From positions 26,356,913-26,420,912 of the forward strand of contig CM062274.1 of NCBI GenBank assembly GCA_031216635.1: a DNA stretch of 64,000 bases, written 5' to 3'. The notes under the pieces were generated by a model that made no database searches, was not told the DNA's origin, and saw nothing but the letters and a program-made list of their open reading frames with translations. Of the stretch, positions 2,735 to 57,954 are shown in pieces (the first letter of the stretch is position 1; each line of letters starts with the position of its first letter). The position numbers and the translations under genes were made by a program. Origin of the DNA: Dissostichus eleginoides. Taxonomy: Eukaryota.

Positions 2735-3056
2735 AAAGAGCACATATTTTTTTAATTTCATATTAGTAGGTTCATATGTGTATTGTGTGCTTCTACTGTG
2801 ACAATTGTACATGCTTTAATGCTTTATTTTGCTCATACTGCCTGTGCTGCAGCACCTCTTTTCACCCTCTGTCTGAAACCAGAGCCCATTCTGCTCTGAT
2901 TGGTTAGCTGGCCGGCTCTGTTGTGATTGGTCAAACACTTATAGATGTCCCGCCCCTTAGCCTATCACGTAGAATGTGTTGAAGTACTAGCCAATAGAAG
3001 CGCGAGTGCTACATACTGATGTCAAAACCGCTAAAAGCATAAAAGGACCGCTTTAA
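2735..3056 (-). mobile_element. MITE family A copy (about 320 bp, internally shortened), TTAA-flanked
   Basis: Reverse complement of the 3968-4382 copy. It shares the ctgattggttagctgg...gtgattggtcaa...ctattggctagcgctccaac core. The terminus gcataaaaggaccgct is followed by ttaa. The 5' boundary is approximate. Confidence 0.6.
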
Positions 3057-5407: not shown

Positions 5408-6037
5408 AGCGCATGCCTGTTACCATCTCACTGTAGGTCACCAATGTAATGTTTGTAGATCCCTTTATTACATTTATCCTCGCCAGCCATAGTCTCTAAA
5501 TAACTTATTTCACGTATATATGATATTTAGGCTCGCTGGTCTCATCGTACAACGGCAATGAAAAAAGCACCAGGGGAGGCAGCCATAACCTCTGCCGCAC
5601 TGAAGGGGGCGCACGTGAGCCCACAAGTTCTTGTTGCTACTGTTATTCTACGCAGAGATGCAGAGACGGTAGACGCAAACAACAAACTAGACTTTTGAAA
5701 CTACAGGAAGATAAGGAGGACTTTTACACAAAAGTAATAGAGATTGTTGTCCAGAAGGATAACATGGACTTCATCTTCAAGTCAAGGTAAAACCACAATT
5801 GTAATGAAAATGGGATCTTACTAAGAAAGAACAATCCACTATTTAGATTTTGGGTATTCTTTTGTTAAACGGTCTGTTTAAAATGAATCGAAGCATCAGA
5901 CTAAAAAAGCTTTTGAAAATATCCGAATATTTCGATTAAGGTCAAAATATAATATTTGTAAATCTGACTCTGAAAGAGTCAGTGCCTCACCAGCCATGAA
6001 CCTCACCGCACGTCACTGGTGTAAACAATACCCCCCA

Positions 6038-10496: not shown

Positions 10497-10530
10497 AATG
10501 AAGGGCCTAATCCTAATCTTAACCCTAAAC
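10497..10530. repeat. Degenerate telomere-like (CCTAAT/CCCTAA) run
   Basis: cctaatcctaatcttaaccctaaac. Confidence 0.6.
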
Positions 10531-21626: not shown

Positions 21627-23331
21627 TTAAAGAAAAAAGCTTAACGGCTTTGACTAAATCCACATTTTAATTTGCTTTCTATTCTTACATACCAGGGATG
21701 CATATTCATTTTAACTCTACCTTTCTGTAGTAAGATTTATTTTATTTTCCCTGAAGTTTATTGATTTTCTGAACAGTATTATATGCTTGGGCTCTATTTA
21801 ACTTCCCAGCCAGAAGTTGCTTGCAATGCAGTTTTCATGAGGAATAAAAGCAGCATGAATTGGTGTCCGTTTTGACATGAAATGGGTCTTGTGCTCTAAT
21901 TAGATGCTAAATCCTCAGTGAATCTGGCCTTCAGTCAGTATTGTGTGCTGTAATAACCTTGAGTTTTGAACATGTCAAGCATCATTGGCAGAGATGTTTG
22001 GCATGAACAGCCTTTATACAACAAACCAGACTGATGAAGCTTCTATACACACAGACTCCTACTCTCCAAAGCCTTTTCTTTGTCTGCGCTCCGGGGCTTT
22101 GGGAAGAGATTGACTGCTGCTGCAGCTGTTGACAGACTACATTCTCCCTGCAGCTGCTGGGAAAGCACAGAAGAAGTAATGTGACATCCTTTCTCTGGCT
22201 GCCAGAAGATGCCTGAAACTACAGAGAGCTTTTTCATCTCTTACCCTGAAACCAACAGCACCTCCCCGCAGCCTTTCCTGTCCCAACTAATGCGTTTCGG
22301 CTTCACACTTTGATCATCTCTCATGGTCGCCTATCCTTTTGAACCACCACTAATTGTTTTTTTGCCTCTGTGGACTATCCATGTTTTTCACATCGGCGTG
22401 CTTTTTCTTTGATTCCAACCACCGTGGTACCCACATTTACTTGTTTGTTGATGTATAAATCACTAATCAAACCAATGAGAGCTGGATCTCTTGTTTATTG
22501 TTATTGCATCAATACAAATTAATAAAATGTAAAATATGAACAAGCAGGGTTCCAAGCAGAAAATCAATTAAAGGTCCCATGTCATGCTTTTCTGGTTATT
22601 ACACGTCCCCTTGTGTGTTATGAAGGTTTTTCTGCATGTAAACGGTCTGCAGAGTAAAAAACCCTCAAAGCACACCCTGTAGCGAGTAAAACTCTAACAC
22701 AGAAAAGACCTGTCTATGCTGCCCCAGAACGCCTCGTTGGAGATTATCTTTTTCCATTTGTTTCTTCCGGGAACCGCATGATGACATGTGGTTTCCGGAA
22801 CCAAAATGGAACAATCCGCGGAGCTCCTCACACACCAGGACCTTTAGCGTACATTTTCAACTAACAGGGAGTCCCATTGACTTGCATAGAGCTCCCTGGT
22901 TGGTAATAGACGAGTTGGGATCGCGGAGAAATGCTCTCCGCAGACCCATTCTCACAGCATTTATAAACTGGACGCATTCATAGGAAAGCACAAATTAATC
23001 ACGGACAGTCAATACGGATTCAGATCAAACAGATCAACATCACTGGCAATTATGGAATCAATTGAGGATATCACAGATGCCCTTGAACACAACAAATATG
23101 CAGTAGGGATTTTTATAGATATTAAAAAAGCTTTTGACACAATCAACCATAACATCCTAGTATATAAATTAGAAAGGTATGGTATCAGGGGTTTAGTTTT
23201 AGACTGGATTAAAAGCTATTTAGCAATAGACAGCATGTGAAGCTGGGAAATGACTGTTCTTCATGTTTGGACATTGCTTGTGGTGTCCCCCAGGGGTCAG
23301 TGTTGGGTCCTAAATTGTTTATACTGTACAT

Positions 23332-24245
23332 CATGGGTGGCAATAGGTGGCCCGCGGGCCATTGGGGCCCGCCAGCAATAATATTTGGCCCGGAAAATTA
23401 TTTTGAGAATAAAAATAAATATTATTTTGAGATTTTTTTTTTACAATTAGGACCGACAGTCACACACATATAGGCTATAATGTCCGAATAGAGAATCTAC
23501 CTACACCTGAAGAATGCTTATTGTACTTGTATCCATGTTGAGAGTGAATGACACACAGCACAGGCACAATCTGGCAGCGGGGTGCACTGACGCTGATAGT
23601 GGATCAATAGGTGGACAGCGCGTGGTGCTGAAAGAGCCAACATGCGGTTTGTGGTTTGAAAACAATAACACCAGCTCACTAAATCATTCAAATGTAATTT
23701 TTACTTATATGTGAACATGTAACAAAGTTCAGTCAAGACATTGGCAACAAAATCGGAGAAGCCGCCTGATCATGGAGGGCGAGGGGTGGTGGTGCATATG
23801 CTGCCACCCCAGCTGCTGCCCCAGTTGGCAGCTTTGTTTTGAAAGAAAAGTTTTGGCTCATCGGACATTTATGAGAAAATCCCTAATTTCCGAGTGCAAG
23901 TGAATGCAGCACAAGACGCGAGCCTTGTAACCCCTACCCCGGCCCTGGCCCGAGCGTGGAAATGTGATTGTCATTTGAACGGGATGGCGCAAAACGAGAT
24001 GCATTCGGTCTACATTGACAGAGAAGAGACTGTCATGTTTGGCTGTACTCAGCATTGATTCAAAATGCACTAAAGCTTTGGATCTTAATAAGTTTGTGAG
24101 CAGGGGTGGACTGGGCATCTGTAGAATCTGGAAAATCACAGAACGGCAACGCAGCGGCACCGCAGCGGCACCGCAGCGAGGCTCCCCCGTTGACAGTTCA
24201 CTAGCACACCCCCCCCCCGAGGCCAAATATAATTGCCGACCCCTG
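23332..24245. mobile_element. Non-autonomous hAT-like element (914 bp) with an 8-bp target-site duplication (TSD) CTGTACAT, nested in the LINE RT
   Basis: The identical 8-mer ctgtacat lies at 23324-23331 and 24246-24253. The termini are CATGGGTGGCAAT / ATTGCCGACCCCTG (rc CAGGGGTCGGCAAT). Joining the flanks restores the continuous RT codons LGPKLFILYINDICRV. Confidence 0.7.
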
Positions 24246-25126
24246 CTGTACATCAATGACATCTGTAGAGTATCCAATGTACTGAGGCTAGTTTTGTTTG
24301 CTGATGATACAAATATATTCTGTTCGGGGGAGAATTTAGAACAGCTAGTGGAGAACATAGACAATGAAATGCACAAATTAAAAACATGGTTTGACAAAAA
24401 TAAACTATCATTAAACTTGAGCAAAACAAAATTAATGCTGTTCGGTAAACATAGAACAAAAACACAAATGCAAATAAAAATAGATGGGGTTGAAATTGAA
24501 AGAGTCCATGAAATTAAATGTCTTGGGGTAATAATAGATGACACAATAAGTTGGAAATTACACATAAAACATGTACAAACAAAGCTGTCAAGAAGCATTT
24601 CCATACTAAACAAAGTAAAACAAGTTCTAGATCAGAAATCACTTTGCATTCTCTACTGTTCACTAGTCTTACCATATCTGAATTACTGTGCTGAAATCTG
24701 GGGCAATAACTACAAGAGTTCTATACATGCAGTATCTATTCTACAAAAAAAAGCCATACGAATCATTCACAATGCCAAATACCTTGATCACACTAACGAA
24801 TTATTCCTGCAGTCAAAATTGTTAAAATTCACAGACCTGGTAGAATTCCAAACGGCACAAATCATGTTCAAGGCAAATCATAACGTTTTACCAGGAAACA
24901 TCCAAAAAGTATTCACTGGGTGGGGGGATATAGTTCAAGGAGACAATTTCAATTGGAAATTCATAGGGTCCGTACAACCAGAAGAACTTTTTGTATCTCA
25001 GCCTGTGGAGTGAGACTATGGACCAGTGTGAACGTGGAGCTAAAGCGATGTCCAGACATTAACCAGTTCAAGAGGAAATACAGAGAAATAATTTTCTCGA
25101 GGTACAGGGATGGGGAAGGTGTTTGA

Positions 25127-25300: not shown

Positions 25301-26138
25301 ATAGATTATAAATAAATCATTTAGGGACAAGGGGGTGAGATTAAATAAATATACTTCTTCTCACTCCTTTTCGAACACTAGATGTGGGACTGTTGATGTT
25401 GCTAATGCTGTTGTTGTTGTTGTAAATGTCATTTTTTGTTTTGATTTCTCTTACATGACTATGCACTGTAACATTTGTTTTGTTTTGTAATTATTTATTT
25501 TACTTGATCGAAATAAAAAACAAACAAATCCAATCAAAACCTTTTTCTTACTCAATATCAAGCCACACTTATTGTTTTTACTTCGGCTGTGAGTGTTTGT
25601 GTGTGCTCAGGATGAGTTTCGCGCTGTCACGCTGTATCGCCGACCGGAAACCACACCAGTAAACCAGCTCACTGAGCAGTGAGCCTGGCAACGTCCTGAC
25701 CAATCAGAGCACACTGGGCTCACAGGGAGGGGGTGCAGGAGCTCCAACAAGCCGTTTAGGACAGAGAGTGAATACACATACTTTACAGAGATGCTGTATG
25801 AGAAACCAATGTGAGTTTGGAAAATTGCACAATATAAATATATTTTAGTAGACCTCAACAATGGAATTATGATCAGTAGAAATGGCCATGACATGGGACC
25901 TTTAAACAACAAATATTTTGCAGATAATCCATTTTAAAAGTACAAGATGACCCAAGTTTAGATTTCCTGGTATCCACATTTACTTGTTTGTTGATGTATA
26001 AAGCACTAACAAAAAGTCCTGTTGTGATTTAAATTAACCTTTCATTGATTTGCACTCCCACATTGCACATATTTTGGATAATGCAAGTTATTTTCATGTA
26101 TTGTTTGTTTTTTTCTTAAATATTGCTAATTATAAGGA

Positions 26139-26160
26139 CTAACCCTGACCCTAACCCTAA
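26139..26160. repeat. (CCCTAA)n telomere-like array, left part
   Basis: ctaaccctgaccctaaccctaa. Confidence 0.85.
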
Positions 26161-26493
26161 AGCTGCATTCACATGATACGCGGTAAAACGGCTCTGTGCT
26201 GACGTTGCCATTGTAGTTTAATGGAGACTGGACCAGACAGAAGTGCCACCATTGGATTCGCACATCGCATGAAATTGTCGCTGAGTGTTACTCTCAAAGT
26301 TCAAGTAATTTCAACTTTGACCTCATTAACCGCTGACCTTTCGAGGCGCAATCAATCAGATGACAGCTGTATGTAGCGGCGCAAGATGTCACGCAGGGGA
26401 CGTAAACATAGAAACAAATCAAAATAGCTATTTTTCCCACAAGGCTCTGTGCCCAACCTCAAAGAGCAAATCTTGTATCATGTGAATGCAGCT
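26161..26493. mobile_element. Short TIR element (MITE family C, 333 bp) with 19-21 bp perfect TIRs, inserted inside a (CCCTAA)n array
   Basis: AGCTGCATTCACATGATAC ... GTATCATGTGAATGCAGCT. The flanks are ..ccctaa| and |taaccctaa, so the TSD is either a 3-bp TAA or none. Confidence 0.7.
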
Positions 26494-26515
26494 TAACCCT
26501 AACCCTAACCCTAAC
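26494..26515. repeat. (CCCTAA)n telomere-like array, right part
   Basis: taaccctaaccctaaccctaac. Confidence 0.85.
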
Positions 26516-36982: not shown

Positions 36983-38650
36983 TAAAGAAAAACAACAAAG
37001 ATGAGCCACATTATTGGATGTTTCTTCTTACAATGAAGAAGGACACTTAAGTCTATTTTGAGTTATACCCACTTAAACCAACATGCTGCAGTTCAGCAGA
37101 GAGCACCTAGTGGATATTAATGCACATTTAACTCCCATCAAATAAGATAGGATGAAATTAGATCCTGGGGGAAATTGTTGTACAGCAATTGCAGTACAAA
37201 GTATGAATAAATGCAAACAATAAAGAGTATCAATGAAGGGTAAAAAGACGAATCTACACATAAAACACCAAAATAAAACAAGTGATCAGTAAGGACCAAA
37301 GATATCAGAATTGTAAACCTTCTTGGAAATAAAACAATTGCCAAGAAGGTTTACACATGAGTTATTTGCTTTGTTGTATAATGGTGCACACAATTACATT
37401 TTAAAAAGAGCAAAAACAAATCTTATGAAATCATAAAAAAATAAAAAGTAAGTAGGAATGTTTTCAATAAATATAAAAATACAACGGTCAAAATATGACA
37501 AATTACTCTGAAAGGTCAAATAAGTGCAGTATATTAGAATTTAAAGTTGAGCGCTTTGCAGTTTTAAGACTGATAAACAGAACTTTAAAAAATATAGTAA
37601 ATGTGCAGAGTTACCTTTGAGATATCTACAAGAAGTGGCATGAATAGAATATCAAAGAGTATACGGTTAGTTTAAAAAGTAATGTCCCATTATTGCACAT
37701 CCCGGCTCTTAGTCTGCCCCAATTCAGAGAGTTGTAATGAACTGTCATCCACGGAGAGACAGTAATCCGGAGAGAAATACCAAGATTTAAACAAATAGAG
37801 CAGAACACTGCAGGCCTGATAAGGAGGATAAATGTAGAAATGACTCCTATTTGCATCATGTTTTCTAAGACTGCAGTACCGATCTATCCTAGGAAACTAT
37901 TTAATCTTATTTTATTGTATTTACACCTTCAAATCAGAAACTACTCCCAGTATTTATACAGTAGCTTGTCTACTGACAGTGTTACACAGAAGCTTTCCAG
38001 CCTATTGCATCATAAAAATGTGTCGCTGGAAGCCTCATCCAACACAGTGTACACTATGACACCTGCTGATGAGTTATGTTTTCACTTTCAAGCATACAAA
38101 CCATGACATGTTGCTTGACTCGCCTAAAAAAACTACTGCTGTAACCAACGAGCGTTGTCACAATATATGATCAGAGTGAGGACACAAATCTTGCCGTGTT
38201 TACCCCCGCTGACAACCAAGATGACTGAACAATACCTCGACTAGTGTTTCAACCAACTGCACAAATCACAGAGTACAGCGTCTTCCAGCCGCCTCCGATC
38301 CTCTGATTCACTCAATGACTCACCCGGAGGCTTCAGCCCTGATGCTGCTGACGCTCTCAGTGGGCAACATGCTCCCTGATAACAAGGATTTCACTTGTTA
38401 TGCAATCTGCACAAGGACTTTACACAAACTTATGGTAATTACGGTCTCTAAAATGGACTTTCATTAAGAAGAAGAAGACATTGTATTGATCCTACAAGGG
38501 CAAATTCAGTCTTTCACCCTGTTAGAAGATTTCAGACGAACAACTAACGTTTGAAATGTTTATTAACAGCAGCATATAGCTTTATTATGGCGACTTGGCT
38601 CCGGCCCCATCACCCCTGCACATATATATTACACAGCAGTCATGTGTTAA

Positions 38651-39400
38651 AGGGCCCATGTCATGGCCATTTCCACTGATCATAATTCCATTGTTGAGGT
38701 CTACTAAAATAGATTTATACAGATAGATTTTGTGCATTTTTCCAAACTCACATTGGTTTCGCATACAGCATCTCTGTAAAGTATGTGTATTCAGCAGTAT
38801 TCACTCTCTCCACTAAATGGCTCGTTGCAGCTCTTGCCCCCCCTCCCTGTGAGCACAGTGTGCTCTGATTGGTCGGGACGTTGTGAATCGCGCTGAGCTC
38901 CGTGGAGGTGTGGTTTCCTTGTTTAGCGATACACAGCGAAACACAGCCAAACTCATCCTGAGCACACACAAACTCACAGCCGAAGTAAAAACAATAAGTG
39001 TGGCTTGATATTGAGTAAGAAAAAGGTTGATAAACGCTGTGAGAATGGGTCTGCAGAGAGAATTTCGCCGCGATCCCAACTGTCTGTTATCAGCCTGCAG
39101 CCAGGGATGAGAAATCAGCAGAGCTGGACGTAACGTAACGGCTCCACGGATTGGTCCATTTGGTTCCGGGTACGAGCTGACGTCAGCTCGTACCCGGAAC
39201 CAAACGGACCCATCCGTGGAGCAAAGAAAGAAACTGAGAAATCTCCAACGAGGCGTTTTGGGGAGGAATTTCCTATGTTAGAGTTGTACTCGCTACAGGG
39301 TGTACTTTGAGGGTTTGTGACTCTGCAGACCGTTTACATGCATAAAAACCTACATAACACACAAGGTGACGGGTAACCGGAAAAGCATGACATGGGACCT
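38651..39400 (-). mobile_element. Intact MITE family B copy (750 bp) with TTAA TSD
   Basis: ttaa|AGGGCCCATGTCATGG ... CATGACATGGGACCT|ttaa. It is collinear with the split copy at 22572 and 25901. It contains an 84-bp palindrome. Confidence 0.8.
39141..39224. repeat. 84-bp near-perfect palindrome centred on TGACGTCA inside MITE-B
   Basis: gctccacggattggtccatttggttccgggtacgagctgacgtcagctcgtacccggaaccaaacggacccatccgtggagc. The inner 46 bp are a perfect reverse complement. Confidence 0.85.
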
Positions 39401-44325: not shown

Positions 44326-46217
44326 GATGAATCCTTATGAAGCTCTGAAGCTTTCCGGCCAAGTGGTTCACAAAAGGGATCATCTCATGAGGCTTCATTT
44401 GAACACAAACCCCCCTGTTGGTCAAAGTGTGTAAAACAGGCAGATTTGAATTAGATACAATAAAAAAAAAAATAAGATCCATGATGCAAAAGCCTTTATA
44501 TATATGTTAGGAGATGTGTGAAGTGATTTAATTTTTTTTATTTAGTTTTATTGTAATGGAATACCTTTTTAAAGTAATCCTCTCAACTCTGCTTATGTGT
44601 GTTGAGTCTGCAGTGTTTGAGCCCTGTGACTGCAGATTGAATCTACTAAAAGCATTGTAGGATTATTTTGTCCCAATATGCTAGATGACAGTTTTCAGGA
44701 CACAATGAAGGTCTTACACTATTCACAACTGACAACAAAGCAGGGAGATGCCTCTGCAGGAAAAAATCAAACTTGAGGATATAAAATAAAATAAAAAATC
44801 TGGTATGTAAGGGAAAACATTAGTTTCTAAAGGATTTAGTGCCAAAATATGTCAGATTAAGGCAACAAATTAATAAAAGAAAAATTGCAAAACATAGGAA
44901 AAGGTTGTTGTCCAGAGGTGGACTGTAACTAGGCATATTTTGTTAGGCTTTGTTCACATTTTATGCAACTTTATGCGTCTAATCTACACCTTAGGCTAAA
45001 ATAGGACATTTTATAGATGGCTTGTCCCTGCATGTAGCTGCTTGCATCTTTACAGTTTCCCCTTGCCTCACCAGCTCTGTCATCTTCAGGATTAATTACC
45101 TTGAAGCTTGTTAATTCCCTTGGGAGTGACATAAATACCTAACAGCTCTCTTACATTCAACAACATTGTTAACGCTTTCAAAAGTGCATTAATTAGCAAG
45201 ACCAGGAGACGAAATGTAGTCATCATAATCTAGATCTTAAACTATAAAAAAATGTCTTTAATCTTATTTTAATTTGATTCAAAAGCCAATTACCGACCAA
45301 GTGTAATTTTTTTGAGTTCTTTTTTTAATCACACAGGAACCTCCCAAGCCGCCAATAATTTGGTATTCTTTGTGATAATTGCCATTCTTTGATTTCTGAG
45401 GATAAAAAAGTGTAAAGAGCGCCATGCAATGTCGAAACAATATGTGCAAAAACTGTAGTTTTATATATTACTCAAATCTTTCTTGAAAATGAAATCACTG
45501 ATACAGTGTTATCATGTTTTAAAAGTTTGTCAGATCAAAAAGAGAAAGAAAATTAAAGTCTGTAATACCAATTATGCTTATAGTGGGAGTATGATATAAG
45601 GTCATACAGTATAGGAATATATCTCATATTTAAACAAGAATTACCAGTGTCCTTGTGCAAATGAGAAACAGCTTCTAGCTTTTTTGATCACAGAATTAAA
45701 GCAAGTTTCAAATCCACTAACTGTACTTCCTTGTGAGTGCTCATGCTTTAAAGTGGTTGTGACACGGTTTTCCCCCATCATCCAAACCATTAATTTCAGT
45801 AAATAATGTCCCCTTGAAACCGTTACTGAAGTGATTTTTGAAAATGTGTACTTTGATAACCGTTAATCTGCCCTTCAATGTGACCATATTCTGGATCTTC
45901 TCTGGGTCTGCTCTGGGATTCTTAAACTCCCGCGAAAAGGTGTGCCGCGTCACAGAGGGAACACGAACGCTTCCGGAGTCCAGTATCTGTATGCAAACAA
46001 ACGATGGCGCACACAGCAGCAAGCTCCGACTGCGATTGTAGTTTAATTTTGAATGTGTCTGAGAGCTCATATGAGGATGAAGCATCTGATAGTGATAGCC
46101 TCGTAGACGATATTGACTATATGCCCTACAGATTCGAACCATATGCCTCTGAATCGGATGAAATTAACTCCGAGTCGGACAGTGGAGACGACAACCCCCC
46201 CGACTCTTTCCCTCCCT

Positions 46218-46221
<4 letters not shown>

Positions 46222-46276
<55 letters not shown>

Positions 46277-46279
46277 ACA
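46222..46279. repeat. (CA)n microsatellite of about 28 units, inside the THAP element and just 3' of its splice donor
   Basis: Direct reading. Confidence 0.9.
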
Positions 46280-46324
46280 GAGTATCCTAAAAAACACATC
46301 ACGTTTAAAGGTTGTTGTTCTTAC

Positions 46325-46723
46325 CTGAGTTTTCTCTTGTTGCTCGAAGTAGGCACTTCGGGGGCGTTTAGCTGGGGGGTTGGCGAAGTCTTTGCGGCCT
46401 TTACGGATTTGGGAAGGCGTGGGAAAGAGAGTAGGCACTGCTGACGGCTTCAGAATCCGTCTTCGCGAAAAATCAATCCCAGTTTCAGCCATCAACAAAG
46501 GCCTTTCCTCGAAATTCTCGGCCAGAAAGTGGGCGCTGCATATGTAGGTCGATGTGGGGTTCATCACAGACCAGCCAGCCCTTGTGTTCGGCACGTTTTT
46601 CTCCCATGTGCGCTGACGCTTGACATCCGTTGGAAAGCTATGTATGCTGATGTTAAGTTCCTCATTTGCTGTATTGGAACAGCCAGACACAACGCATCGT
46701 CGAACCATCTCTACGCGTGACAA
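46325..46723 (-). CDS. THAP-type zinc-finger DNA-binding domain exon (first coding exon) ending at a CAG|GTAAGA donor
   Basis: M(SRVE)MVRRCVVSGCSN..ISIHSFPTD..RQRTWEKNV..W.P..YICSAHF..RRILKPSAVPTLF has the THAP signature: C-x4-C ... C-x2-H, FP, W, P and AVPT(I/L)F. The likely start is the MV.. Met at 46708. The frame ends in phase 0 at 46325, immediately before gtaagaac on the minus strand. Confidence 0.7.
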
Positions 46724-46900
46724 ATCCCTTCTGTCCCTGTCTGGCTCAATGGGAGCAGAATAAATATGGCCCTTTGTGACGCACTTCCGCCTTCGTCCCG
46801 AAAAAGGAAACTGAGTGATGGACTTTTCCCGCGATATTCGAAATTATTGATATTTATCAATACGGTATCGCAAATTCATTTTTAAACTGATGGTTCGAGA
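46724..46900 (-). promoter_or_regulatory. Putative promoter/5' flank of the THAP exon, with an E2F-like TTTCCCGCGA site and a GGAAGTG (ETS-like) site
   Basis: On the minus strand, atatcgcgggaaaagtcc and ggcggaagtgcgtcac lie 60-130 bp upstream of the ATG. This is inference only. Confidence 0.25.
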
Positions 46901-47879
46901 TGACTAGTAGCCCAACATTGCATTGCACAACAGTAGGTGGGATGGTGTCACAACCACTTTAAGAATTCTTCTTCCTCCTCATTTGGATGATAATACAGAG
47001 TTGGCTCTTCTCACAGAGGAAAAAGTTATCTTGCAGAAGAACTTGAGCTTTGAGGTGTAAAATTTCGATATGCTTTCATCGACTGTTGAACATGTAAAAA
47101 TAGAAGTGGAAAATGAGAACGGGCCACTGACAAAAAGATACGAACAAATAAAAGCATAGAGCCGGAGAGAAAACAGGGAAGAGAGGGATTGATGTTTCTT
47201 TTTTGTTCAGGCAGTTCCTGTGACTCACCGAGAGAACTGTGAGCTTTTCAATTCCCTCCAGATACCCACATTTCTGATATAGGTTCTTATTATTTTCAGA
47301 CTTCTTTATATTCAAAATGAAACTTATAATCATTGTAATATCATTTCGATAAGGGTAGGGCACTGAGTCTGACTTAAAGCACACTTCATTAAGCTTTTCA
47401 TCACAAAATTAGCATCCATCCTCACAGAGAGCCCAGCATGTTGTCTGGGATCCAAATATGCTTCAAAGGATTCATACAAAAAAAGACAGAGAGACAAAAG
47501 AAGATGTACTGGTTGATGGCTTCGTGGATGTATTTTCTTTGTATTTTCTACTTTAAATTATAAAAACAAAGCCTTAAAAAAGACGCTATAGTACAGGTTT
47601 CAATAAAAACACTATACAATGGTGCTATTGCATGTTACTGTCCACATCAAACTACATAGATACTGTAGATAACCCTAACTCTAGTAAACAGGGTGCTTAA
47701 AATCAACAGGATCAACCATTTGCCAATAGCCGTGTTTAATCTCCACAAACAGAAAATGTTTCCCCACACTTCGACGGGATATATTTTAACTTTTATAATA
47801 TTACATTTATTGCGTTTTTACACCATATTGGTATTACAAAATATTTTTGACAGAACAGCAAGACAAGGGTAGGTAGCAC

Positions 47880-51299: not shown

Positions 51300-52020
51300 C
51301 CTCTGAAAAAAGAAATGTGTCTCTCAGAATCGAAAGGGAAAAACCTATGGGAAAAACACAAAAGCATTGTACACAATTTAAACCAATGAATGTCGTGGAG
51401 TTAACAAGGATAAACTGATGTTTTTTAGTGGATGAGTAGTGCAGATATCACTTTAAATTCATTTGACAGTGAGGGGAATACGGTTTTATTATGAAAACTT
51501 CGAGACCGGAAATACTGTTTTCACCCCGTGAGGGTTGACGCTAACTTTACATGGACGCTGCCGCATATACACGTTCTCCTGGTGAGACCTCAAATCATCT
51601 TAGTAATATCTATCAAACTATACTGTAGATCCTACACATCCACTGGACGTGGATTCTAAAAGTACAATACACACTTCTCGCTAGAAATCTAATCAAAAAG
51701 TATTTTAATAGCCAAACTATCCTACAATTTAGGATTTTCCAGAGAGGGTTATTTGTGAATATACGACCCTCCGGAGCGTTTGCAATCAACGGGAGCACTA
51801 GAGGTCGAAAACTTTAAAACGTTTATAGGAAAACAATAAATGGTCGTAAGATGAAATCAATTTTAGGGTCGTATAAGCGCAGAACAATCAACCTATTTGG
51901 TCGTAATAAGCGCTTGAACAATCAACCTATTTGGTCGTATGAGTTGGAGTAGATTATTTTACGGCAAAATAAGCGCATTCATCTTTTGCATTCAATTAAT
52001 CTGTGGGGGAATTTAGTGGC
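51300..52020 (-). repeat. Right arm of the large inverted repeat. The subrepeat acgaccaaataggttgattgttc is tandemly expanded here
   Basis: See the left arm. The spacer between the arms is about 2.7 kb with no long ORF. Confidence 0.8.
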
Positions 52021-54935: not shown

Positions 54936-56302
54936 GTTTAAATGATTTGTTATCGGTTGTGATCATATTCTAAAGATGTTTGGATTATTGAAAAGTATAC
55001 AGCTCCCTTTCATCTGAGTGTTGAGAGCTGTATCCATAAATTCATTTTGTGCTCAAAGTGCATCAGATGGATGCTTATAACTTCAACATTTAAAAAAACA
55101 TCTTCCCGGGGGTGCATGCCCCCGGACCCCCTTGGGGATGTGAGGTCCACCCCGAAATAAAGCAGGTTAAAATAATTAAATTGCATACATGTTCTTTTAG
55201 TAAACACTGCAAACGGGTCCCACAGACCCAAACAGCACACAAAGGTTAAAGGTAAGCATATAATAATGTTAAAATGTGCTAAATATATACACTGCAAAAA
55301 ACAAAAAAGAGGAGTAAAAGTAGCTCACGACTTGTTTTATTTTTTGAAAGTAGCTCTCATCCTAAAAAAGGTATAGAATACAAAATACATTTCAAAAGAA
55401 AAAAACATGCATCGTGTTCAGTTGCAAATTTGCCTTTAAATGAGCAAAGCCTTTTAGTGATTCAAAGCGTAAAAGGAACAGACTGTGGAGAAAATGAAAC
55501 TAAGAGGAGTGGTACAATCAAAAGATCTCAAGGACACTTGTAGTTTTAGAGAGGTCACATCTGTAATAGACTAATGTAGTTCTCACCTTCACAGTTTATA
55601 GGAGCAGCCTTGAGGGAAAAGGCCAGCGAGAGTGAGCCGAGCTCTGGGCTTCGGGGAGGCCTGTGTGGGCTACATGCTGAAAGGGTGCCCTTCATTTCTA
55701 GACAGCATGCCCTTTTTAAAATACAATCATAGATAGAGGGTGAGTGGCAGTCTCACTGTTGTCTGTCCCAATTGCTACACTAGGTCACAAACGTGCCCTC
55801 AAGAGCCTCATTTGTGCACACTCATCCGGAGTCCCACGTGGGGTTAGATTTAAGCAGGAAGAGCCATTTGCGTAAGGATAGGAAAAGACTGTAAGTTCCT
55901 TTTTCAGTTAAATAGTAGACACTTTTCTTTCGGCTATCACTTGCTGTGCATAGCCGTTTTGTTTGAAACAGGGACCAGCTGATTCTGCAGTAGTCGCTAA
56001 CCTGCCAGTCGGACCAATGACTATCCCAACAGAGATCTCAAGAAGGTCACACCGAATAGACGAATGATGACAGCTGGGATAGAAAAGGATAAGCCAAGTC
56101 TCCTCCGTCATCAGGGGCATCATACGATCACTGGCTAAGAAAAACGATGAGCTAATCACGCTGGTGGTTAGTCAGACCGATTATCTGGGGTGAAGTTTAA
56201 TGTGCTTTATGGAAACATGGCTGCATCAGGATGGATATGAGCACAACCCTTCCATTGATGGCTTCCGGATTGTTCTGGTTTAAAGGGATTGCACCACCGT
56301 GT

Positions 56303-56652
56303 TCATCATGTCTACACCATGAGTCTGAGTCTTCATCATGTCTTCATCATGAGTCTGGGTCTTCATCATGTCTTCACCTTGAGTCTGAGTCTTCATCATG
56401 TCTCCACCCTGAGCCTGAGTCTTCATCATGTCTCCACCCTGAGCCTGAGTCTTCATCATGTCTACACCATGAGTCTGAGTCTTCATCATGTCTCCACCCT
56501 GAGCCTGAGTCTTCATCATGTCTACACCATGAGTCTGAGTCTTCATCATGTCTCCACCCTGAGCCTGAGTCTTCATCATGTCTTCACCTTGAGTCTGAGT
56601 CTTCATCATGTCTTCACCTTGAGTCTGGGTCTTCATCATGTCTTCATCATGA
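56303..56652. repeat. 30-bp minisatellite, about 11.5 tandem units
   Basis: The unit is tcttcatcatgtct(a/c/t)ca(c)c(a/c)tgag(t/c)ctgag, with variants tctacaccatgagtctgag, tctccaccctgagcctgag and tcttcaccttgagtctgag. It generates the repetitive ORFs 56231-56701, 56280-56639 and 56289-56816. Confidence 0.9.
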
Positions 56653-57954
56653 GTCTTCAGGGGTTCTCTTTCCTATGGCAGGCGTCCTGCCTTGTTTTTA
56701 GATCAACTTCTTGTGTTTCTATCATTATTTTAATGAACCTATCAGTATTTAAATCATTTTTTTGTTTTTATTCTAATATTGTACAACTGTCAAAACCCAA
56801 TTTCCCCCCGGGATAAACCAAGTATTCAGATTATGAGTGCCTAAACATGACAATTAAGTCACCATGAGTGGATATCGCAGAGAAAACCAATGAAATAAAT
56901 TGATTGTTAATAGCGTTTCCTAATGTTAATTAACAACTTAATCAGGCAGCATTGCTATGTCCCTTTAATAACAGATATGCTGTTTCTAATTAGCAGAATG
57001 TAAATGTACAGTCATTTCTAAAGACAGGGTTAACTAGATGCAGCTGAGACTCATTTATTATGCTTTATCGATGCGGTGGCAGTATTTTAAGCAGTGAGGA
57101 AAACAATGTTTTGTTTTCCTGCTTCACAAACTTTGGCAAAGCTTGGGAACGTGCTGTGATTGGTAAATGTCAGGTTGGCTGAAATGTAACACTTATGCGA
57201 ATATTTTGGGATTGGATCGGAACACAATCTGCTTTTAGTAAAGAGCAGGCACATTCAAAGTTTATAAAATGAATCCAATTATTATTTTCTGATTTGTTTG
57301 AACTTTGCTTCAAGACATGTTTTACACATCTTTAGTTATATACAAGTAAAGCTTTAAAGGTTCTATTAATATGTGTGCCGAGACACTCTTTATGGCCCAT
57401 TCTCAGGGTAATCCTTGCATTTATATGTTTTCATTCTTGTGTGACATTGTTAAGTGTTAAAGAAACTCACTATGTTCACTCTATTATATGTCTCATACTG
57501 TATGTCTGAATATACGCTGTATGTATCCTTCACCCTACATGCCCTAAGAGCCTGTCTCTTATTGACGTGCAAACTAAAACATTTAGCACACCTTACCAAA
57601 GTGTGTTCTCAAGCCGAGGCTGGAAATACTCAGAAGGGGATCGGTATATTCTAGAATTACCGGAGCCAAATCCTAATGTTGTTGAATTTTCAATTAATGT
57701 TTTCTGATCGAGGCAGCCCACAAAAAACGGACTTGGTTATCTTTATGATGGGAATTTACAGTGATTCAATATATATGTAGGTTTCCTCGCTATGAAATGT
57801 TCTCAGATAGAAGGGTGTCGCCCTGACCATTGTCAGGCAATTATCTTATGGATGTTAGGGTTGTAATTAACACACTGTGCTTCCCCTTCTGTCTGCCCCC
57901 AACCCAACTTGGGACTGTAATGTGGATTGCCTTCCTTTCTGTGTCATCTGTATG

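Follow-up and report, generated by a model that had tools for sequence, protein, structure and literature searches.

A non-coding element of 333 bp with perfect terminal inverted repeats (TIRs) interrupts a short array of telomere-like CCCTAA hexamers in the window, the 64-kb stretch of DNA analyzed here. The preliminary description of a genuine short TIR element within an interstitial CCCTAA array is borne out by coordinates and sequence. We favor, at a probability of about 0.7, an account in which a non-autonomous TIR transposon (MITE) inserted at a TAA of a pre-existing short interstitial telomeric sequence. In such an event, a transposase supplied in trans by an autonomous relative would bind the inverted repeats, excise the element from its donor site and insert it at staggered nicks on either side of a TAA in the array. 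The TAA would then be duplicated by gap repair, leaving the 3-bp TWA duplication that is the signature of PIF/Harbinger elements, here of a Tourist-like MITE. Because TAA with C-rich flanking triplets recurs every 6 bp, a CCCTAA array would offer a dense cluster of acceptable targets, and the element most likely owes its position to this density of targets, not to a telomere function.

The element occupies positions 26161–26493 on the + strand. The 19-mer AGCTGCATTCACATGATAC has exactly two sites in the 64-kb window, 26161–26179 (+) and 26475–26493 (−), both with 0 mismatches; a third site is absent up to 3 mismatches, a tolerance at which the chance expectation for the window is ~0.01 matches. 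With the outer A/T base included by the repeat finder, the arms reach 20 nt (26160–26179 and 26475–26494). A 333-bp element with perfect TIRs of 19–21 bp, as first described, is thus what the window contains, the TIR being 19 nt, or 20 with the next base. The element and its parts are as follows.

26161–26493, + strand: non-autonomous TIR transposon (MITE), 333 bp, with perfect TIRs, ORFs of at most 51 aa and homologues in contigs L001 and L002.
26161–26179, + strand: left TIR, AGCTGCATTCACATGATAC, 20 nt counting the A at 26160; the identical 19-mer terminates the L001 and L002 copies.
26475–26493, − strand: right TIR, 20 nt counting the T at 26494, found by inverted-repeat search.
26190–26199, + strand: left copy of the subterminal motif GGCTCTGTGC, a direct repeat of 26443–26452.
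26443–26452, + strand: right copy of GGCTCTGTGC, found by repeat search and copy alignment.
26296–26318, strand not assigned: internal palindrome AAAGTTCAAGTAATTTCAACTTT, with conserved alignment columns in three copies and a predicted hairpin in the centroid structure.

The palindrome is the most conserved internal block among the three copies (window, L001 and L002). Motifs related to GGCTCTGTGC lie at corresponding positions in L001 and L002, and GGCTCTGTGC is a possible protein-binding site. Pairing predicted for the element as single-stranded DNA is limited to the termini and a small internal hairpin, so that no long fold-back is expected. The longest ORF in the element encodes 51 aa and has no relative in protein collections by exact look-up or homology search; likewise, a six-frame pseudo-protein of the three copies (1789 aa) has no protein homologue in the search. 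Neither Rfam nor tRNA matches were found at or near the element, and an RNA gene or a SINE was rejected as its origin on this basis. The element carries TIRs at both ends, is small and lacks transposase coding capacity, and its family is multi-copy with unrelated flanks in L001 and L002, as is characteristic of MITEs. Judged from its sequence, it is a non-autonomous TIR transposon of an ordinary type and a new member of a family that spans species.

The homologous copies come from exact-TIR scans that covered metagenome contigs, viral contigs and prokaryotic genomes. Two true homologues (L001 and L002) came out of these scans, along with a doubtful end (L004) and a bacterial match due to chance that appeared twice (L003 = L005). 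L001 and L002 are metagenome contigs of one sample and represent an organism other than that of the window. Identity to the element is 74% over 274 nt in L001, and in L002 80% over 82 nt of the internal core and 94% over the final 35 nt; both copies end in the identical terminus, ...GAATGCAGCT. The L001 terminus is followed by TGACTCAAATC... (TGACTC...), and this contig contains no telomere-like 12-mer, with none within 1.4 kb of the element. The L002 terminus is followed by TTAGGGCTC... / TTAGGGCTCTTC..., which comprises a single TTAGGG and then other sequence. Next to the L002 copy, positions 246–430 of the contig look like a candidate hAT-type MITE (...CCACCCCCTG at ~371); the same region holds a 32-nt palindrome (363–394) and, at 416–427, a perfect TAACCCTAACCC, the only one in the 16 fetched loci.

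L004 matches the element in 27 of 29 terminal bases, is unlike it in its interior and has no long ORF; its membership in the family appears doubtful. L003 (a metagenome contig, 3021–3039) and L005 (a Clostridia MAG, 5443–5461) carry AGCTGCATTCACATGATAC within the same bacterial gene, translated ...ERYHVNAATITELSQARAQY..., and were rejected as family copies since this gene carries the 19-mer by chance; in very large collections, chance recurrences of an exact 19-mer do happen. The 64-kb window contains one copy of the element, and ~200 kb of fish-like DNA gathered around LINE proteins contained neither the TIR nor the element. Neither an empty site nor a further complete copy was found in the metagenome, viral and prokaryotic scans or in the ~200 kb of fish-like DNA, and no autonomous partner (DDE transposase plus Myb-like gene) was found among the exact-TIR scan matches. 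A literature search found no paper containing the TIR sequence; a fish MITE family with this 19-nt terminus was not encountered in the literature that could be searched.

On both sides, the element abuts telomere-like DNA, within which a short duplication can be read.

26140–26160, + strand: left telomere-like tract TAACCCTGACCCTAACCCTAA, C-strand, read as target DNA; 3.5 units, one of them a CCCTGA variant.
26494–26514, + strand: right telomere-like tract TAACCCTAACCCTAACCCTAA, C-strand, read as target DNA; 3.5 perfect units, then C.
26158–26160, + strand: putative target-site duplication (TSD) TAA, left copy, in its minimal reading from the sequence.
26494–26496, + strand: putative TSD TAA, right copy, in its minimal reading from the sequence.

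The two tracts form a 21-nt direct repeat, identical at 20 of 21 positions (95%), in matching orientation and phase. The three to four CCCTAA units noted earlier on each side are thus confirmed as 3.5 units each. The sequences that border the tracts on the outside (...TTATAAGGAC and CTAAGAATATT...) occur once in the window. Deletion of the element together with one TAA regains an unbroken hexamer array of ~6.5 CCCTAA units (39 nt), in line with the earlier remark that, without the element, the hexamer phase is continuous or carries a TAA duplication. With a few tandem units in internal, window-unique sequence, the reconstructed array is a short interstitial telomeric sequence. It resembles other short interstitial telomeric sequences of vertebrates in that few exact or near-exact TTAGGG units lie in unique non-terminal DNA and in that a variant unit, here CCCTGA, is located near one edge; it differs in that the array is split by a transposon and in that the window has several such runs, which are ~5 times as dense as in control fish-like DNA. 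Because the TIRs are identical and the flanks match at 20 of 21 positions, the insertion looks young.

Short interstitial telomeric sequences of vertebrates are reported (Azzalin/Nergadze et al.) to be products of telomerase-mediated repair of internal breaks. We considered telomerase healing after cleavage at the ends of the element and rejected it, as the strand orientation is wrong for two of the four ends: healing would place the G-strand on top both at the chromosomal end on the left and at the right end of the element, whereas both observed tracts have the C-strand on top.

Read outward from the terminus, the available ends continue as TTA-GGG (window left), TAA-CCC (window right), TTA-GGG (L002), TGA-CTC (L001) and TTT-CTG (L004). 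The base at +1 is T in all five ends and that at +3 is A in four of the five. A T-N-A duplication best explains this pattern, and the single ends from which it is read thus favor a 3-bp TSD. By copy, the implied TSD is TAA in the window, where it is compatible with the flanks, TTA in L002, TCA in L001 and TTT in L004, the latter two not being TWA. The TAA duplication of the PIF/Harbinger type suggested at the outset is compatible with these data and a reasonable candidate, yet its length is ambiguous within a 6-bp period: TSDs of 3, 9, 15 or 21 bp all fit the periodic target, as do 1, 7, 13 or 19 bp if the terminus is 20 nt long. Because of this period, the TSD does not identify the superfamily. 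The element is probably Tourist-like (PIF/Harbinger type), a superfamily assignment that is unproven because neither an empty site nor another complete copy was retrieved.

PIF/Harbinger transposons produce 3-bp TSDs, usually TAA/TTA, excise precisely and are the source of Tourist MITEs of 100–500 bp (PMC2836001; PMC9179366). Like the Tourist-like MITEs mPing/Ping and zebrafish Harbinger3N_DR, the element belongs to the 100–500 bp class, is non-coding and has short perfect TIRs; a 3-bp TAA/TTA duplication would agree with its flanks, which show signs of a preference in the 3 bp on either side of the duplication. It differs from Tourist-like MITEs in that one flank (L001) implies TCA, not TWA, and in the ambiguity of TSD length in the window. 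In addition, its TIR of 19–20 nt, which starts AGCTGC, is shorter than the 25–50 bp of fish Harbinger TIRs (PMC9179366). Insertion at TA or TTAA and Helitron-type A^T insertion were ruled out because the flanks do not fit. The Dada superfamily, whose members are devoid of TIRs, have 6–7-bp TSDs and sit in snRNA/tRNA genes (PMC3706591), was excluded in view of the perfect TIRs and the absence of Rfam/tRNA matches at or near the site.

The simple insertion favored here would be refined, not excluded, if the position of the element were not due to chance. We regard it as a tentative possibility that the family has an extended target preference of approximately S-N-S T-N-A S-N-S, of which TTAGGG/CCCTAA is a favored half-site, so that the family inserts preferentially into interstitial, possibly also terminal, telomeric repeats. 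An extended preference of 9–15 bp is a known trait of PIF/Harbinger elements, which prefer 15 bp in vertebrates and, in plants, 9 bp made up of the TSD plus 3 bp per side (PMC2836001). Consistent with such a preference, G/C is found at +4 and +6 in all five ends (GGG, CCC, GGG, CTC and CTG), against a background of 13% per end. L002 adjoins TTAGGG, and its 25 nt GTATCATGTGAATGCAGCTTTAGGG match window positions 26155–26179, read in reverse complement, at every base; the sole perfect TAACCCTAACCC among the 16 fetched loci lies 170 bp from the L002 element. One of the two independent ends thus adjoins TTAGGG (L002, not L001), whereas TTAGGG or TAACCC follows a T-N-A site in just 0.4% of cases in pooled control DNA, i.e., ~0.4% per end by chance. 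These figures have to be weighed against the fact that only three ends are independent, that the patterns were spotted post hoc and that the L004 end is doubtful. Moreover, nothing telomeric lies within 1.4 kb on the L001 flank (TGACTC...), and the TAGGG beside L002 may be the start of the candidate hAT-like element, in which case base composition would underestimate the frequency of such starts.

A real liking of the family for the telomeric hexamer has a low-to-moderate chance of being true. That the family preferentially integrates at the vertebrate telomeric hexamer, with a half-site around T-N-A, and that interstitial, perhaps also terminal, arrays are its habitual landing pads appears unlikely. 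Because CCC-TAA-CCC recurs every 6 bp, a modest extended preference would be enough to make CCCTAA arrays hot spots without any telomere-related function; the local excess of telomere-like runs by itself raises the chance of insertion into one of them. As judged from the L001 flank, the family is not strictly telomere-specific. A telomere-repeat specificity of the TRAS/SART type was rejected, L001 being without a telomere-like 12-mer and L002 having a single TTAGGG. Our literature searches uncovered no description of a TIR transposon with specificity for the telomeric repeats of vertebrates and, for DNA transposons in telomeric repeats, returned only retrotransposon cases together with Dada, Pokey and Crypton.

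Membership in a superfamily with longer TSDs instead of PIF/Harbinger seems quite unlikely. The candidates would be a Mutator- or Merlin-like element with a TSD of 9 bp or, given a 20-nt terminus, a P-like element with a TSD of 7 bp. Both the 9-bp TAACCCTAA and the 7-bp AACCCTA fit the flanks exactly, and a T follows ...GCAGCT at each of the five ends, which is what a base belonging to the element would show. The presence of TAACCCTAA on both sides is, however, owed solely to the repeat period, with no other feature to support a Mutator- or Merlin-like TSD, and positive evidence for a Mutator-like, Merlin-like or P-like element is lacking altogether. A T-N-A duplication accounts better for the four of five ends with A at +3, and the size of 333 bp, the short TIR and the TAA match the Tourist-like pattern.

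The element is located at the exact center of the reconstructed array, flanked by 21 nt to the left and 21 nt to the right, a coincidence that simple insertion would produce in 1 of 6 to 1 of 7 cases. Symmetry would be predicted if a single tract had been duplicated when the element arrived, either by hexamer-homology repair from a donor embedded in an array or by an atypically long staggered cut. The two tracts would fit such a duplication in that both are 21 nt long, share their phase at either end and agree at 20 of 21 positions. We nevertheless consider it improbable: it needs a later G/A substitution in one tract although both TIRs are still identical, and an unobserved donor copy in a telomeric array. 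We know of no TIR transposon superfamily with a 21-bp duplication.

It is very hard to believe that the hexamers belong to a composite mobile unit, although TAA also borders the whole block at this single locus (GGAC-TAA ... TAA-CTAAG), or that misassembly at a telomere junction created the tracts. Had the hexamers arrived with the element, the empty site would be free of an array and read ...GGACTAACTAAG... The hexamers are best read as target DNA, not cargo, because homologous copies do not end in telomeric arrays (L001 and L002 share the terminus and have no hexamer arrays) and because the hexamers are direct, not inverted, on both sides of the window copy, so that the outer ends of the block would provide no substrate for a TIR-binding transposase. 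The composite element raised in the preliminary description is therefore not supported. Nor is there any sign of the misassembled telomere junction that it also envisaged: each tract measures 21 nt and lies within unique sequence on both sides, unlike a collapsed telomere.

As it stands, the locus records a routine insertion with tidy anatomy. Once annotated, it illustrates how a MITE can divide a short interstitial telomeric sequence, and the 19-nt terminus of the element can serve as a seed for defining a fish MITE family. If the target preference were true, no TIR DNA transposon with a liking for the vertebrate telomeric hexamer would have been known before this one. It would be a DNA-transposon counterpart of telomere-repeat-specific retrotransposons and would mark telomere-like tracts in the genomes of fish. 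The cause would be a simple one at the level of sequence, namely a PIF-type extended target that the CCCTAA array reiterates every 6 bp, and the preference would bear on the accumulation of mobile DNA in interstitial telomeric sequences and subtelomeres.

Telomere-repeat-specific retrotransposons are represented by TRAS/SART of Bombyx and by MoTeR (cited in PMC8869645). The element shares with these a location in telomeric-type repeats at a defined phase. They are coding non-LTR retrotransposons with sequence-specific endonucleases, essentially all copies of which reside in the repeat, whereas the window element is of the non-coding TIR type and has relatives in other sequence. With Dada (small RNA genes), Pokey (28S rDNA) and CryptonV (microsatellites), the element has in common that it suggests a DNA transposon may use a harmless multicopy repeat as a safe harbor. 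In contrast to Dada, with its snRNA/tRNA gene targets, 6–7-bp TSDs and lack of TIRs, the window element carries perfect TIRs and lies away from any RNA gene; Cryptons differ in that they use a tyrosine recombinase and have no TIRs.

Telomere-like sequence is not confined to the tracts that flank the element. Telomeric 12-mers with at most 1 mismatch were found five times in the 64-kb window, where 0.17 are expected, and three further sites lie apart from the element.

104–122, + strand: perfect interstitial telomeric run (GGGTTA)3.2, i.e., (TTAGGG)3, in the opposite orientation to the tracts.
10506–10528, + strand: weak, degenerate CCTAAT/CCCTAA-like run, 82% matches, score 32.
47670–47683: further weak telomere-like site.

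The claim that the locus carries several interstitial telomeric sequences holds, with 4–5 telomere-like sites in 64 kb. This compares to 2 in 200 kb of control fish-like DNA, a ~5-fold difference in density that hints at a subtelomeric or otherwise unusual region. The run initially placed at 104–123 exists and is perfect, but it spans 104–122 and has the opposite orientation; that placed at 10497–10530 also exists, but is a weak run of the CCTAAT type with 82% matches and spans 10506–10528. Directly after the first of these runs, CACTGCAAA (123–131) has an inverted partner, TTTGCAGTG, 1.1 kb downstream at 1271–1279. A second TIR element beside this run was considered and rejected: the inverted repeat is only 9 nt long and no flanking duplication is present, so the pairing is probably due to chance.

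The neighborhood of the element contains other repeats. Window positions 22890–25013 (+) hold a fragment of a non-LTR (LINE) reverse transcriptase (Pfam RVT_1), the relatives of which are found in the teleosts Syngnathus, Oryzias, Oreochromis and Sarotherodon, cichlids among them; by this reverse transcriptase, the host is judged to be a teleost. A LINE copy on ENA contig L006 is 87% identical at the DNA and 96% at the protein level; this best match (96%) was rejected as the orthologous locus because it is another LINE copy. In a Pfam search of ORFs of at least 62 aa in the first 31.8 kb of the window (1–31.8 kb), RVT_1 was the only domain found, and there was no host gene to anchor an orthologous locus. 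On the − strand, 46070–46843 contains an ORF with a THAP zinc-finger domain (E 2e-15) that enters a (CA)29 microsatellite (46222–46279) and may be either an exon of a host gene or the remnant of a transposon; it was rejected as an orthology anchor, being too distant from the element. The segments 25538–25908 and 38643–39028 form a pair of repeat family members in inverted orientation, 84% identical over ~390 bp, and one member of this pair ends 230 bp upstream of the telomere-like tract. Two tandem repeats are located further downstream: a 34-bp repeat, GGTCGTAATAAGCGCTAGAACAATCAACCTATTT, at 51867–51939 (2.2 copies, 92% matches), and a 30-bp minisatellite, TTCATCATGTCTTCACCATGAGTCTGAGTC, at 56302–56656 (11.8 copies, 91% matches), which gives rise to long repetitive ORFs on both strands.
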